This document shows positions 1,770 through 7,629 of a stretch of DNA of 14,801 nt, one piece after another. Source of the stretch: a virus; UHGV virus genome UHGV-0275206; one strand, written 5' to 3'. The notes under the pieces were generated by a model. It made no database searches. It saw only the letters and a program-made list of their open reading frames with translations, and had not been told where the DNA came from. Position 1 is the stretch's first letter; every line of letters begins with the position of its first letter. The position numbers were made by a program, and so were the translations under genes.

Positions 1770-2237
1770 TCATCGAAGGCATTGCGTCCTGATGTATTCC
1801 TGAAGCGTTCTCAGTGCTGTTTGGTCGCGGATAATTCCGTCCCGGATACCGAGAACGTTTCGTCCAGCAACTGGAGAGAGTTCGACGGTGGCATCATTGC
1901 CCATGCCGGAGGCGCTGGAGGTTTCGGCTGAGGATGGCACAGGGCATTTTCCTTTGACGAGCACCCGACCACCATTATCAAGCTTGCGCCGAAGAGCATC
2001 ATTTTCAGCTTTCGCATCAGCTAACTCCTTCGTGTATTTATCATCGAGTGCATCAGCATCACGCTGGCGCTGCTGCATGTCAGTAATGGTGGCGTTCGCC
2101 TTCTCCAGTTCACTGGCCTTGTTATCGCGCTGTTCTTTGTAGGCGATTGCATTATCACGGTAATGATTAACAGCCCATGACAGGCAGACGATGATGCAGA
2201 TAACCAGAGCGGAGATAATCGCGGTTACCCTGCTCAT
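1770..2237 (-). CDS. Rz: Spanin inner-membrane subunit Rz (i-spanin)
   Basis: From ATG 2237: [38 protein letters not shown]...[15 protein letters not shown], matching the lambda Rz N-terminus as I recall it. ATGA overlap with the endolysin stop. Confidence 0.88.
1811..2017 (-). CDS. Rz1: Spanin outer-membrane lipoprotein Rz1 (o-spanin), embedded in the +1 frame of Rz
   Basis: [39 protein letters not shown]...: signal peptide, lipobox (VVGC) and proline-rich segment typical of Rz1; entirely inside Rz. Confidence 0.75.
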
Positions 2238-2731
2238 TGTTGCCCCCACAAACAGACCTCACGCTCAATCTCACGACGAGTCATCAGGCCTTTCCATTGC
2301 TTACCGCCAGCGTATGCCCAGCGACGTAGCTGGTCACATGCGCCCTTGATATCGCCCTGGTTTATTTTGCGAAGAAGAGTAGATGTTCTGAAATTGCCTG
2401 CGCCCACGTTATAGACGAACGAGTAAAGAGCGCCGCGCGTTGTTTCCGGTATATCGACTTTGATGTACGGGTTAATTTGTCTGGCGACCGTGGCAAGGTC
2501 TTTATTCAGGAGGGCTTTGCATTCTGCTTCGGTATACGTTTTACCTAGCATGATGTCTTTTCCGGTGTGTCCGTAACATACAGTCCATACACCAACAATA
2601 TCTTTGTATGGTATGTGGCTAACACCTTCCAGACCATCGTCACCACTTGGGCCAGTGATTAACACAGATGCTATAGCAATTGCCCCACCACCAATAGCAG
2701 CAGCAACAGCCTTGCGTAATGATGGCGACAT
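2234..2731 (-). CDS. R: SAR endolysin (T4-lysozyme-like muramidase, phage 21 R-type)
   Basis: 165 aa, [59 protein letters not shown]...: Gly/Ala-rich N-terminal signal-anchor-release domain followed by a lysozyme fold; near-identical to what I recall of phage 21 R. Overlaps the holin stop by ATGA/TAATG coupling. Confidence 0.9.
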
Positions 2732-2946
2732 TATTCACCTCTCGCAGCCTTACGCTTATCTTCTTTAATCTTGAAATAAAGGTTTGTCAGATACGTCAGC
2801 AAGCCAAATACCAGACTACCCAGCACTCCAATTGCCGCCCACTGTGAGGGCGTGACTTTATCGAGCAACTGTAAAAACCAGTACCCGACACTACCTGCTG
2901 AGGTGCCATAGGCGACACCCGTTGTTAACTTATCCATGGATTTCAT
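2731..2946 (-). CDS. S: Pinholin, class II holin of phage 21 S type, with dual-start motif (MKSMDK)
   Basis: From ATG 2946: [71 protein letters not shown] (71 aa). The MKS-M start pair gives antiholin and holin forms. SD GAGGTGG upstream. The ORF-track extension to 3009 begins with GTG and is unlikely. Confidence 0.9.
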
Positions 2947-2983
2947 AACCCCACCTCGCAGATGCGGGTGCTGTGTAATGGAA

Positions 2984-3008
2984 ATAAAAAGGCCACCTGA
3001 CGTGGCCA
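2984..3008 (-). terminator. Rho-independent terminator between the methyltransferase gene and the holin (minus strand)
   Basis: Minus strand GGCCAC-GTCAG-GTGGCC (plus 2991..3007) immediately followed by TTTTTATTT. Confidence 0.7.
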
Positions 3009-3013
3009 CCAGA

Positions 3014-4066
3014 TTATTTCCCCACCAGCTCGTTTATCTCTTTCACTGTCTGGTTAAACCGCTCTGACTCAAGCTCAACACCTAAGGCCCGACGCCCCAA
3101 CGCCATTGCTGCTTTTATTGTGGAACCGGATCCCATAAAAAAATCAGCAACCAGATCACCAGGTCGACTACTGGCATTGATTATTTGCCTGAGCATATCC
3201 GCCGGTTTCTCACACGGATGTTTACCCGGGTAGAACTGAACGGGTTTATGCATCCAGACATCGGTATAAGGCACGGAGACTGATACGGAGAAATAGCGCC
3301 GGAGAGATTTAAACTCATCCAGCAATTCAGAATATTTACGATTCAGTGAATCATAAGATGCCACCAGTTGGTGGTGTGGTTGTTCCAGTTGTTGTTCCTG
3401 AAACTTCTCTGCCGCTATACGGGAAAACAGTGCCTGTAACTTCCGATAGTCAGCCTCATTCGGCAACTGCCACTGACTGGCACCAAACCAGTGGGAAACC
3501 ATATTTTTCTTACCTGTGGCTTCGGCAATTTGTTTTGCCGTTATACCCAGTTCGGCACGAGCATCCCTGAAATACGATATCAGCGGTGCCATTATGTGCT
3601 GTTTGAGTTCCCTTTCTTTTGCCGCATAGCCGTCACTTTTGCCGCGATATGGCCCCTGGTAATGTTCAGCAAACAGAACGCGCTCTGTGGCAGGAAAATA
3701 TGCGCGCAGACTTTCTTTATTACACCCATTCCAACGTCCGGACGGCTTCGCCCAGATGATATGGTTAAGCACGTTGAAACGTTCACGCATCATGATCTCA
3801 ATATCAGATGCCAGGCGATGCCCACAGAACAGGTAAAGGCTTCCGGCAGGTTTCAACACCCGCCAGAACTGGGCCAGACAGTGGTCCAGCCACTTAAGGT
3901 AATCTTCGTCCCCTTTCCACTGATTGTCCCAGCCGTTGGGTTTCACCTTGAAGTAAGGCGGATCGGTAACAATCAGGTCAATGGAATCATCAGGCAGGGA
4001 CTGAATAAAATGCAGGCAATCAGCGTTGATTAAATCAACACTGTTTATTTTTACAGTATTTTTCAT
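3014..4066 (-). CDS. DNA methyltransferase, beta-class (motif IV DPPY before motif I FxGxG); likely N6-adenine-specific orphan MTase
   Basis: 350 aa; [10 protein letters not shown] near the N-terminus and DFFMGSGST near the C-terminus. No adjacent restriction endonuclease gene. No SD at the start. Confidence 0.85.
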
Positions 4067-4216
4067 GGATCAGTAAGCGTAACTCTGGTAGGCTCACTCT
4101 GCTTTTGCGCTAAAGCAGTGGGCCGTGGTTCGCTTGTGACCAGTAGGCATGAGCGAATGGCTGGCAGGTGCTACCAACACCCACCAGCCGCCCATTTTCA
4201 CAGCAGGAAACCGCCA

Positions 4217-4420
4217 TTACTGGCAGCGTCTGAATTTATTCCCGTACCCGCCGTTATCCTTCGCCAGACCCGCCAGAACTAACTGAGTCAGTATTAACTG
4301 GCACCGGGCTTCGCTTACTCCGGTAGTTCTCGTCATCATGCGTGGCGTTACCCACTTGTCAGCAGGTAAGAAATGAAGGACTGCGGCGGCGGTTTCTGTC
4401 ATATCTTGCTGTTTTAGCAT
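4217..4420 (-). CDS. Small hypothetical protein (about 67 aa), possible winged-helix-like
   Basis: ORF 4217..4444. The internal ATG at 4420 has a good SD (AGAAGGGA, 7-nt spacing), whereas the first ATG has none. No recognised family. Confidence 0.4.
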   Translation of the reverse strand: MLKQQDMTETAAAVLHFLPADKWVTPRMMTRTTGVSEARCQLILTQLVLAGLAKDNGGYGNKFRRCQ

Positions 4421-4542
4421 GTCTTTTTCCCTTCTGGTTAACATGACATACCAATAACTCTTGTCTAAAATGCCAGCAAGATAAAAAGTCAGTATTCACG
4501 ACAACCAGCGTGTTTACTGTACTGCACCAGGTTTACAGGTAC

Positions 4543-4566
4543 AAAAAAACCGCTCAGCGGCGGGTT
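4543..4566 (-). terminator. Candidate tR'-like intrinsic terminator of a short late-promoter transcript
   Basis: Minus strand CCGC-TGA-GCGG short stem (extendable by a G-U) followed by TTTTTTT (plus A-run 4543..4549). Weak stem, strong T-tract. Confidence 0.4.
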
Positions 4567-4639
4567 TAAGTTGTGTGGCGAAGTAACCACTCTTAACATG
4601 CTAAATGAAAAAATGCGGACCGCGTTAGTGATTTTTCAT

Positions 4640-4695
4640 CTCTTTCACGTTAATTTAAGTCTACAGGATAGAATTAAAAATAAACTGAGGCAAAA
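4640..4695. promoter_or_regulatory. AT-rich divergent promoter region: candidate late promoter PR' (minus) and promoter for the plus-strand cargo operon
   Basis: Minus strand: -35 TTGCCT (plus 4688..4693), 17-bp spacer, -10 TATCCT (plus 4665..4670), then a -10-like TTAAAT element in the initially transcribed region, as in lambdoid PR' sigma-dependent pause sites. Plus strand: -10 TAGAAT (4669..4674) with a weak -35, then SD GAGG (4687..4690). Confidence 0.35.
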
Positions 4696-5559
4696 TTGGA
4701 TAGTTCTACCACTTTCAAAGTCTTCTATGATGCCGAAGATGAAGAATTAGCACAGCATAAGATTGATGCAAAAACACTAAGTTTATCAATAGGGTCTATG
4801 GCTGACCTTATTGCAAAGGCGGATCGAAATCTTAATGATGGGCAGGAAACAGTCAAATTGATGGTTACCGCTCCTGCTGCACCTGGATCAATCGGTGTTA
4901 TTTATTCAATGCAAGAGTTAGTTCCTCATGCTGTCGATGTCGCCAAAGCAATTGGACTCACTGTTGCTGGTGGTGCATTAGCTGGTGGCTCAGCTCTTGC
5001 ATTGATTCGACAATTGGGGAGTAGAAAGGTTATTTCTGTTACTCGAAAGGTCGACACACAAGAAGCAGTATTAGAACTTGATGGAGAAGAAATTATTTGT
5101 CATGAGGCTGTTGCAAAGTTAGTGACTGATCCCGAAATACGACAAGCCTTAGTTAACGTAGTTAGAGCACCACTAGATGGTAAAGAGCGCCCGATCTTCA
5201 AAATTACTGATGATAATGGAGAAGAGATTCTCAAGCTTGAAGGAGAAGAAACTGAAGAAATCAAACCACTACCACGTGGTACTTTACTAGAAAAAGAAGT
5301 TTCTATTGATGAGGTTAACGTCAGATTCATTCAAGTAAACTTTGAAGGGAATAAGGGATGGCGAATTGATTATCTTGGTGAAGAACATTCAGTAAGCCTA
5401 GATGACAATGTTTTCCTTTCGCAGGTTCAGGCTGCAACAGTACAATTTTCAAAAGAGGACCTTTATGTTGTTGATTTAGAAACAACAAAAACATTTACTG
5501 CGCGTGGCGTAACAAACCGTTATGCTATCAAAAAAGTTAAACGTAGACGACCAGCTTAA
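4696..5559 (+). CDS. Cargo gene A: acidic 287-aa protein of unknown function with one Gly-zipper hydrophobic segment
   Basis: TTG start 5 nt after SD GAGG. GC about 37-40% by eye versus about 50-55% in flanking phage genes. Segment AKAIGLTVAGGALAGGSALALIRQLG carries GxxxG motifs; basic C-terminal tail KKVKRRRPA. No catalytic motif recognised. Confidence 0.6.
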   Translation: MDSSTTFKVFYDAEDEELAQHKIDAKTLSLSIGSMADLIAKADRNLNDGQETVKLMVTAPAAPGSIGVIYSMQELVPHAVDVAKAIGLTVAGGALAGGSALALIRQLGSRKVISVTRKVDTQEAVLELDGEEIICHEAVAKLVTDPEIRQALVNVVRAPLDGKERPIFKITDDNGEEILKLEGEETEEIKPLPRGTLLEKEVSIDEVNVRFIQVNFEGNKGWRIDYLGEEHSVSLDDNVFLSQVQAATVQFSKEDLYVVDLETTKTFTARGVTNRYAIKKVKRRRPA

Positions 5560-5565
5560 ACAGGA

Positions 5566-5829
5566 ATGATGTTAACCCAGCAGATCATAGAACTCGCGAT
5601 GTGGATAGGGGTGATCATGATATCACCTCTCCTGTTTCGCTTCTCATACGCTGCATCCGCTTTACTATGGCGGAGGTTATTCCCTGTTCGTAAGTTTGAG
5701 TTTGTTTTTGTCGATGAAGTCACCAACGATAAGCGGTCAATCACTATTGTCATGCCTAAAGACAAAAGCAAAACTATCGTTCAACTGATAGAAGAAGCAA
5801 CGAATGACGGCACCAGTTCAAATGTCTGA
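5566..5829 (+). CDS. Cargo gene B: small membrane protein (87 aa, N-terminal transmembrane segment)
   Basis: Starts 7 nt after the gene A stop (AGGA ATG ATG). Hydrophobic stretch LAMWIGVIMISPLLFRFSYAASALLW, then a charged soluble tail. Confidence 0.55.
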   Translation: MMLTQQIIELAMWIGVIMISPLLFRFSYAASALLWRRLFPVRKFEFVFVDEVTNDKRSITIVMPKDKSKTIVQLIEEATNDGTSSNV

Positions 5830-6235
5830 TGAAAAAAAACCAACTAGCCCAGTCACTTCAACCCTCTCTACTGGCGGTTTTGGGATCATTTTGTCAGGTC
5901 TGGTAACATTTTGCGTACCTGATGCCAATTCAAACCTTGCGAAATTACTATATTTAATAATACCTCTTATTTCGGCAATCCTGACATATATACTTTGCTG
6001 GGTAATTGCACGTCATGGACTTGAATCACCAGAAGATGCAGCAAAAAGAAAGCAATGCCTCCGAGATCTCGAGACCATTGATAAGCAATTAGCATCGAAA
6101 TATACCACTGATGAGTTTAGGCAAAAGCTGCTACGCTCTCGAGAAGCAACTGTGGAAATAATGATCAATATAGGAAAAAATAGTACAGCAAATCCATTAC
6201 CAAAATTTGAACAAATTGAGAAAGATACTGTGTAG
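5804..6235 (+). CDS. Cargo gene C: membrane protein (143 aa, or 137 aa from ATG 5822) with two predicted TM helices and a charged C-terminal helical region
   Basis: Overlaps gene B (coupled). TM candidates GGFGIILSGLVTFCV and LAKLLYLIIPLISAILTYILCWVIA; C-terminal KRKQCLRDLETIDKQLASKYTTDEFRQKLLRSREATVEIM. Ends 18 bp from the convergent Q stop. Confidence 0.55.
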   Translation: MTAPVQMSDEKKPTSPVTSTLSTGGFGIILSGLVTFCVPDANSNLAKLLYLIIPLISAILTYILCWVIARHGLESPEDAAKRKQCLRDLETIDKQLASKYTTDEFRQKLLRSREATVEIMINIGKNSTANPLPKFEQIEKDTV

Positions 6236-6253
6236 GTATCTTTCTCATCTTAA

Positions 6254-6616
6254 TTAATCCATATCTAATGTTAGATCTAGCATTGAAAGGCAGCCATCAA
6301 TAAACCCCTCAGCCATCTGTATCTCAATGCGTATTAATTTCTCATCCTTTTTACGAGCCTTGGCGAGCTTTCTTTTAGAGATACCGAATAGGTAATGGGC
6401 AACAAGAAGCGAATGTTCGTCCGGCCTTTTTTGCTTTAGACGAGCAAGACAACCTTCAAGAATTAATGCATCACTATCTGAACAAGCCTGACGTGTTTTG
6501 CTTGTATAGGGAAGAAGCCCTTTAAACCCAGCAGCTATAGGAGAATAGTCAACTCCTGAACTATCACTCGCCGCCCATGCTCCCCAACGATCCAGAACCA
6601 TTTGAATATCACGCAT
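6254..6616 (-). CDS. Q: Late-gene antitermination protein Q (short Phage_antitermQ type, as in DLP12 QuuD / phage 82)
   Basis: From ATG 6616: MRDIQMVLDRWGAWAASDSSGVDYSPIAAGFKGLL...EGCLARLKQ...; close in pattern to the roughly 125-aa QuuD-type Q as I recall it. SD GGAG upstream. The track start at 6631 is a TTG. Confidence 0.8.
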   Translation of the reverse strand: MRDIQMVLDRWGAWAASDSSGVDYSPIAAGFKGLLPYTSKTRQACSDSDALILEGCLARLKQKRPDEHSLLVAHYLFGISKRKLAKARKKDEKLIRIEIQMAEGFIDGCLSMLDLTLDMD

Positions 6617-6633
6617 CAACTTTCTCCACAAAA

Positions 6634-7629
6634 TCAGGCCAGTACGCCAATTGCCAGCACACGATCGATAAAACGAAATATCAGCTCCAGTTGGGAGCCA
6701 TACTTCTCTTCAAATGCCACGGTATCTGCATGCAGCTCGTCGTGATGCTTTCTGCACAAAGGCAACACAAAAAGGTCATGCGCTTTTGTTCCCATTCCAC
6801 CCTGACCGTGACCTATCAGGTGGTGGGGATCATCAGCGGGCTTTCCACAACATGCACACGGCTGTGTCTTAACCCAGCGCGTGTACTTTTCATTAACCCA
6901 GCGGCGACGTTTTGGGCGTAACATAAAAGACTCCGGCGACTCCGGATCCACTTTCAGCGCCAGCACCTTTTTCGCCTTATCCTGGATGATGCTGGTGGCA
7001 GGAACCGAAGGCACAAGGTCACTTTCCCGGGTAACAGACGGCACAACAGGCTTCGGTAATCTCAGTGCCTTACGGGCTGCACTTTCCGGTAAGGCATCCG
7101 CCAGATCATTACGAATCAGCCACCAGCACAGTTCCGGCATTGTCACAACGTGACTGTCATCAAAACCGAGATCCCGACGCACAACAGACAACACCCAGCG
7201 GGCACAGTTATCCGTTGCCATTGATTCCAGCCGTTCCGTGAACTGATCGCGCAGCTGGTTATCGCAGTGCCAGCACAGACGGATTGCACCCGGAGCGTGT
7301 CGCATTGTGGTCATGTTCTCGCTGTGCCAGTCGGAATGAGGCCACTGGCAGCCTTTTTCACGAAGTAACCAGCTTTCAAGACATTCCACGCCACCAGCAC
7401 GACGGATCACTGCCTCATTGCGGAACACGGCCCGAACGGCAGGATCATCCGCCAGCGGTTGTGATGCCGCCGGAACGGCACCACTGGCGAAAGATGAATA
7501 ACGCTCCGGCTCAGGCTCCAGCAGGACACGCCCCTGCATAAACAGGGGCATCAGCTCTGAACCTGGCCTGAACAATACGATCCCCATACGCGGGGCTATT
7601 TCAGGGGTCAGTAGTGCTCTCACGGTCAC
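6634..7629 (-). CDS. DUF968 (YdfU-like) protein with C-terminal HNH-like Cys/His cluster
   Basis: 331 aa; C-terminal ...QPCACCGKPADDPHHLIGHGQGG...LPLCRKHHDELH; sits directly upstream of Q as ydfU does next to quuQ in Qin-type prophages. GTG start (alternative GTG at 7623 with SD GAGG). Confidence 0.75.
   Translation of the reverse strand: MTVRALLTPEIAPRMGIVLFRPGSELMPLFMQGRVLLEPEPERYSSFASGAVPAASQPLADDPAVRAVFRNEAVIRRAGGVECLESWLLREKGCQWPHSDWHSENMTTMRHAPGAIRLCWHCDNQLRDQFTERLESMATDNCARWVLSVVRRDLGFDDSHVVTMPELCWWLIRNDLADALPESAARKALRLPKPVVPSVTRESDLVPSVPATSIIQDKAKKVLALKVDPESPESFMLRPKRRRWVNEKYTRWVKTQPCACCGKPADDPHHLIGHGQGGMGTKAHDLFVLPLCRKHHDELHADTVAFEEKYGSQLELIFRFIDRVLAIGVLA

Follow-up and report, generated by a model that had tools for sequence, protein, structure and literature searches.

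A likely Q-dependent late regulatory cassette separated from its antiterminator gene by antisense cargo in an Escherichia coli lambdoid prophage

The viral genome UHGV-0275206, analyzed here as a stretch of 14,801 nt (the window, to whose whole length all coordinates refer), is part of an Escherichia coli lambdoid prophage, and its positions 4400-6700 are 100% identical to E. coli strain 98219. The late unit is read on the minus strand, downstream of a gene for a Q-type antiterminator. We propose with good confidence, from comparison of related sequences, that the segment 4636-4543 on this strand acts as a Q-dependent late regulatory cassette that has been split from Q by cargo genes lying antisense to it. 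Its elements are the following, numbered from the predicted transcription start:

4636-4625, minus strand: upstream edge of the module, AAAAATCACTAA, with an A tract at -45..-41, delimited by alignment of cargo-free with cargo-bearing loci (columns 82-93% conserved)
4624-4615 (-33..-24), strand-symmetric: palindrome CGCGGTCCGC, candidate Q-binding element
4603-4598, minus strand: predicted -10 hexamer of the late promoter PR', TAGCAT, aligned to TATCAT of Stx phage Sp5
4591, give or take a base or two, minus strand: predicted late start (+1, an A), aligned to position 746 of the Sp5 locus (L084:746)
4575-4590 (+2..+17), minus strand: small leader hairpin GUGGU-loop-GCCAC, a predicted fold
4563-4550, minus strand: terminator stem CCGC/GCGG flanked by A-U pairs, followed by T7 (U7 in the RNA) at 4549-4543, from a terminator scan and folds

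In the mechanism that we envision, these elements would act in the order A tract, palindrome, -10 hexamer, start, conserved initial transcribed block and, at about +49, terminator. Without Q, RNA polymerase starting from a constitutively active promoter would make a leader of about 49 nt and then stop. Q, encoded 1.6 kb away, would act in trans and load onto polymerase paused just past the start, and the Q-loaded polymerase would read through the terminator into orf75 and the methylase, holin, lysozyme and Rz genes. The cassette is separated from Q because the antisense cargo operon occupies a recurrent insertion site, which extends from the 3' end of Q to about -46 of the promoter.

To see how the module is distributed, we fetched 80 viral contigs encoding a Q protein 73-98% identical to that of the window (loci L003-L082). 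The module, about 95 bp long, was found alongside this Q clade in 75 of the 82 sequences examined (81 relatives and the window); it was not detectable in the others, where the contig mostly appears to end soon after Q. Homology to the window among the relatives ends at about 4636-4640. The distance from the Q stop codon to the palindrome is 1-20 bp in the 12 loci that are free of cargo and 832-1683 bp in the 63 that carry it, including the window, where it is 1,630 bp. The first-pass annotation of this DNA had proposed that the late unit is displaced from Q by insertion of cargo between the Q gene and its target site, and this idea is borne out: the Q gene stops at 6254, three plus-strand open reading frames (ORFs) intervene at 4696-6235, and the cargo-free relatives have the module right behind Q. 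Q thus usually adjoins the cassette, as in these 12 relatives, Sp5 and phage 21 (whose annotated record agrees with the annotation on this point), but not in the window. Adjacency is a usual feature and no mechanistic requirement, since Q would act in trans.

The edges of the module are also informative. Q of the cargo-free relatives is about 10 residues longer, ending in a C-terminal tail (DWLPKKVKND) that the window Q lacks, and its last codons with the stop (AAAAATGATTAG) align with 4636-4625 of the window, so that the cargo sits between the 3' end of Q and the module. This edge, with its A tract, is possibly an UP-element-like tract. With phages whose Q is unrelated (Ayreon, Stx2c phages), homology is confined to 4566 and below, from which it follows that the segment 4636-4567 travels with this Q family and that the terminator and late genes form one mosaic unit. 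In Stx phages, too, a homologue of the module follows the Q stop codon.

The start and the -10 element come from one of these homologues. Sy et al. (PMC7547250) mapped the PR' start of Sp5 by differential RNA sequencing 258 nt upstream of the 3' end of the terminator tR', and the transcript is cleaved by RNase E between GU and AUU at +173. In the Sakai sequence two independent anchors, the point where the T run of tR' ends and the sole GUAUU motif, agree on these published distances in a +1 at L084:746, the A in CATATCATGATAAG[A]GTGGTTAC, which follows GATAAG. This start gives Sp5 a -10 hexamer TATCAT, 7 nt upstream of it, and a -35 hexamer TTTACG with a 16-bp spacer. A TAnnnT sequence occupies the -10 position in 43 of the 49 unique modules of our collection. 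Among 28 representatives spanning all 25 cargo classes, the columns of the alignment were conserved as follows:

-45..-41 (A tract): 82-93%
-33..-23: 86-100%
-22..-13 (spacer): 29-71%
-12, T: 93%
-11, A: 100%
-10: 32%
-8: 50%
-7, T: 100%
-6..+6: 93-100%

Retention of -12T, -11A and -7T among variable bases is what selection on a -10 element would be expected to produce. It is followed by a block at -6..+9 (GTTAAGAGTGGTTAC, 4597-4583) conserved at 75-100%, and at no less than 93% except at +7 and +8. The start near 4591 and the hexamer TAGCAT are, on this comparative evidence, most likely the late promoter of this prophage.

The same module could be read as no more than the terminator and 3' untranslated region (3' UTR) of the early (Q) transcript, left behind as a relic after cargo insertion, with the late promoter elsewhere, for example upstream of orf75 or of the holin gene. 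Directly after the Q stop, where cargo-free relatives have it, is indeed where a 3' end signal is expected, and Ayreon is annotated with terminators at several places in the region. We consider this very unlikely. The primary start of Sp5 maps within the homologous module, and conservation at -12, -11 and -7 fits a -10 element and not a 3' UTR. The module is moreover intact in the 63 cargo-bearing loci, where it is beyond reach of the Q transcript, and the minus strand between 4540 and the late genes offers no better promoter candidate, the sole match of a promoter scan there being a 9/12 site inside orf75.

The late promoter at 4591 would have its Q-binding element in the palindrome. CGCGGTCCGC is found, with one mismatch allowed, in every one of the 75 window-clade sequences carrying the module. 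Conservation of its columns is 86-100% among the 28 representatives, and it occurs once in the window. In a second clade, that of Q933W, all 78 module-bearing loci (of 80 fetched) carry TTTACGATCGTAAA in this position. DLP12 of K-12, whose Q is 78% identical to Sp5 Q, has a palindrome of this second type, TTTACGTACGTAAA. The palindrome is thus centred near -27 in both clades, and its constant position combined with a sequence that changes with the Q clade makes it a candidate Q-binding element. The scan of loci with Sp5 Q returned only proteins 95-100% identical, among which the palindrome is invariant, and no intermediate clades.

The terminator is the other element of the earlier annotation that stands: its hairpin and T7 are recovered as the first terminator of the late leader. 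In RNA from 4591, the hairpin would span +29..+42 and U7 +43..+49. Where 2.6 terminator-like sites were expected in 2.9 kb, the terminator scan returned 8. A GC hairpin with a T run is kept in this place by 24 divergent relatives, whose stems differ in sequence and show some compensatory changes. The promoter-proximal terminator is real and conserved. The leader would be about 49 nt, in place of the roughly 110 nt given by the annotation, and it has a direct precedent in phage 21, whose terminator is annotated at +3..+50. The small hairpin upstream of the terminator is predicted with five pairs in the window, in Sp5 and in L066, with a shorter four-pair stem in DLP12 and with three pairs in the consensus fold. 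In Sp5 (L084 770-795) a strong terminator-like hairpin with U7 (-21.9 kcal/mol, z-score -3.7) lies at about +25..+49, well before the published tR' at +258; it goes unmentioned in the portions of PMC7547250 used here.

Several points weigh against assigning the late switch to this module. The start in this phage is a prediction from homology. The window clade has no recognizable -35 element (AACGCG at -35..-30) and its -10 matches the consensus at only 4 of 6 positions; a consensus scan calls no promoter at the site. No convincing sigma-dependent pause element was found, and +1..+15 of the window contains no TAnnnT; +7..+12 reads TACTTC, where Sp5 has TACATT. The window terminator stem is weak, with 4 G-C pairs (-13.4 kcal/mol, z-score -1.65), and Sp5 transcripts pass the homologous first hairpin to reach the second terminator at +258. 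Finally, a reporter fragment of DLP12 is numbered -121 to +650, and its forward primer lies 476 bp upstream of the start that the module predicts there; together, numbering and primer position point to a different reference start site. The reporter start (primer at L085:3254, +1 at about L085:3375, 355 bp upstream of the module) probably belongs to another, RpoE-dependent promoter, and we set it aside as a candidate for the late start. As to the consensus scan, we dropped it as a criterion: it calls neither of the candidate promoters considered here and also misses the experimentally defined PR'21 and the phage 21 terminator.

Two further candidate elements near the start were rejected. TAAGAG (-4..+2), considered as a pause element like TAAGCT of phage 21, begins just 8 bp from the first base of the -10 hexamer, which is too close. 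On the minus strand an inverted repeat, GTTAAG (4597-4592, -6..-1) and CTTAA (4570-4566, +22..+26), brackets the predicted start. L072, L080 and L083 change both arms, so that GATAAG pairs with CTTAT, and in phage 21 TAAG (its pause element) and CTTAAG are similarly placed. A covarying RNA helix formed by these arms was discarded: most Q933W-clade loci combine GATAAG with CTTAAC, and the 5' arm precedes the mapped start.

The first-pass annotation had placed the late promoter further upstream, at TTGCCT (4693-4688), a 17-bp spacer and TATCCT (4670-4665), with a start near 4658, a pause element TTAAAT (4658-4653) at +1..+6 and the long leader running to the same terminator. All the strings that it quoted are found on the minus strand, including the GC hairpin and T7. 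The proposed promoter has the correct strand, lies upstream of the terminator, retains the key A and T in its -10 hexamer and, with a consensus score of 8/12, outscores the promoter predicted by homology. We nevertheless regard it as very unlikely to be the late promoter. Its score is under the 9/12 threshold of the scan tool, 57 equally good sites occur in the window, and when the 139-bp AT-rich region is shuffled with its composition kept, 72% of the shuffles contain at least one such site, so that the match, being at chance level, has by itself no weight. The hexamers at 4693-4653 lie outside the conserved module, in cargo-specific DNA. Besides the window, only L003 and L049, which have the same cargo, share them. 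Loci whose cargo is homologous but diverged (L041, L044, L054, L058, L067 and L078) have a different sequence there, and the hexamers are likewise missing from all other cargo classes and from the cargo-free loci. The proposed -35 is explained by the cargo on the opposite strand, where TTGCCT(C) reads as GAGGCAA, the ribosome-binding site ahead of the cargo TTG start codon at 4696. A start at 4658 would also leave the conserved palindrome at +35..+44, downstream of the proposed pause element, unlike in phage 21, whose pause element comes after the Q-binding element. Lambda has the same order as phage 21. The annotation expected Q-responsive promoter activity within 4640-4700; since the start near 4591 that Sp5 homology gives lies outside this interval, the promoter position probably falls. 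In sum, the displaced unit and its terminator hold; the coordinates given for the promoter and the pause element are in all likelihood off by about 67 bp.

The mechanism proposed for the module at 4636-4543 is the standard lambdoid Q-dependent late switch. In lambda, the leader is 194 nt long and the pause element lies at about +2..+7. The lambda PR'-qut-tR' unit (6S RNA) and the window share the logic of a late promoter, promoter-proximal loading of Q and a terminator before the lysis genes. Lambda Q belongs to an unrelated family (PF03589, per Yin et al.), and lambda has no sequence homology to the window here.

Phage 21 (OL657228; Yin et al. 2019) is closer. Its Q is in the same family, PF06530, which Yin et al. 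describe as the Q21/Q933W family, even if the window Q is only distantly related to it (E-value 0.003, also for the weak match to the solved Q21 structures 6P18/6JNX). The experimentally defined Q-binding element of phage 21 sits between -35 and -10, the interval that also holds the window palindrome, and phage 21 also has a very short leader, a terminator by about +50 and an S21-type holin downstream. The differences are that this element is a direct repeat (ATTGAGCA/AATGAGCA) at -27..-12 and not a palindrome at -33..-24, that phage 21 has a consensus -35 TTGACA and the pause element TAAGCT at +2..+7, neither of which is evident in the window, and that its cassette begins 6 bp past Q.

The PR' region of Sp5/933W has direct homology to the window from about -12 to the first hairpin and T run, at 84% identity over 66 bp. 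The spacing of -10, start and hairpin is the same, and both have a palindrome near -27, but TTTACGATCGTAAA differs from the window palindrome and includes the usable -35 TTTACG. The Sp5 cassette overlaps the Q stop codon and has a second terminator, tR', at +258; the segment that gives the RNA StxS there is absent from the window.

The displaced layout itself is common and already known from DLP12, which has the architecture of the window: quuD, antisense nmpC, module and then essD and the lysis genes. There the cargo is a porin gene, nmpC, in place of a defence candidate, and the module lies directly upstream of the holin gene, without orf75 or a methylase. Control of the DLP12 lysis cassette by a Q-type antiterminator was reported by work cited in PMC7918800. 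Between nmpC and essD (L085 3690-3775), DLP12 carries TTTACGTACGTAAA, a -10 TATGCT, GTTAAGAGTGGTTAC and a hairpin with T run, a module that predicts a late start near K-12 genome position 577,229. Two things set the window and its relatives apart: the type of palindrome that goes with this Q clade, and the variety of antisense cargo found at the junction.

The PR' leader of Sp5 is the source of the regulatory RNA StxS (PMC7547250), which raises another reading of the window module: that it mainly yields a short regulatory RNA, or that it is overlapped by an antisense small RNA from a plus-strand site at 4443-4471, and that it does not serve late control. This site (ATGACA-17-TAAAAT, 10/12) is the best promoter-like match in the region and points through the terminator complement toward the cargo. 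It is covered by a match to STnc130, a Salmonella small RNA, on the plus strand at 4440-4575 (E-value about 0.3-0.5). We think this reading most unlikely. The sequence of StxS, which lies between the first hairpin and tR', is absent from the window, the STnc130 match scores 21.6 bits against a threshold of 55, and an RNA by-product would be compatible with a late-promoter role. A permissive Rfam scan gave sub-threshold matches only, to STnc130, STnc310 and P9. The plus-strand site and the Rfam match could reflect an antisense RNA, a cargo promoter or chance.

The cargo that separates Q from the proposed late cassette is an operon of three ORFs taken from the list of open reading frames, given here with the hairpin at its end:

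4696-5559, plus strand: cargo ORF1, 287 aa, TTG start with a GAGG ribosome-binding site
5566-5829, plus strand: cargo ORF2, 87 aa
5804-6235, plus strand: cargo ORF3, 143 aa
6217-6247, both strands: 13-bp hairpin, terminator-like on both strands in the scan

The operon is antisense to Q and matches phrog_3243. ORF1 corresponds to the PADLOC defence candidate PDC-S42 (E-value 1e-32), and the three ORFs have no Pfam match. The operon is a candidate anti-phage defence system. The hairpin occupies the 18 bp that separate the Q stop at 6254 from the last cargo stop at 6235, and is likely a two-way terminator that insulates the converging Q and cargo transcripts. Being upstream of PR', the cargo is left out of late-gene transcription.

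Such insertions are frequent. In fact, 63 of the 75 sequences (window and relatives) carry 0.8-1.7 kb at the Q-PR' junction, in 25 size classes, and in all of them the ORFs are antisense to Q. Other cargos match PADLOC TIR-TM and PDC-S20 (KAP NTPase). Further ones resemble an NYN nuclease or a Clp-like protease, the latter by inspection only and with no family match. The junction could be a dedicated, precisely bounded exchange site for antisense anti-phage defence cargo in lambdoid prophages of the Q21/933W family. It would begin at the C-terminus of Q and reach to about -46 of PR', and it holds at least 25 cargo classes in a single orientation. A second possibility is that this Q clade recognizes a symmetric 9-10-bp palindrome centred at -27, unlike the direct repeat of Q21. 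Both readings, a junction dedicated to exchange of defence cargo and a Q that reads the palindrome and not a direct repeat, are tentative and rather doubtful.

The remaining genes of the region, with assignments from Pfam and PHROG for the late genes, are:

6634-7629, minus strand: DUF968/HNH gene
6254-6616, minus strand: Q antiterminator gene, Pfam PF06530 Phage_antitermQ (E-value 6e-52)
4444-4217, minus strand: orf75
4066-3014, minus strand: N6/N4 DNA methylase
3009-2731, minus strand: S21-type holin
2731-2234, minus strand: lysozyme
2249-1770, minus strand: Rz-like ORF

The late genes, lysis genes included, thus lie at 1770-4444, downstream of the module on the same strand, in an order that matches phage cdtI and phage Ayreon. 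The listed Q ORF, 6254-6631 on the minus strand, opens with TTG. QuuD of DLP12 and Sp5 Q, to which the window Q is 50% and 47% identical, open at a Met six residues in (MRDIQ...), so the true Q start is probably 6616, where an ATG forms residue 6 of the listed ORF; the protein would then have 120 aa. A tRNA scan found no tRNA, and an Rfam scan of the whole window had no match at the gathering threshold.

With this assignment, the late-gene switch of a common E. coli prophage group is now placed at defined coordinates, in a family where promoter hunting by consensus misleads. The palindrome provides a testable candidate Q-binding site for this Q clade. If it is indeed what Q recognizes, Q loading would follow a different mode, in which Q perhaps replaces the missing -35 contact. 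The recurrent antisense cargo site, in turn, would explain how accessory and defence genes can separate a regulator from its target while late control goes on undisturbed.

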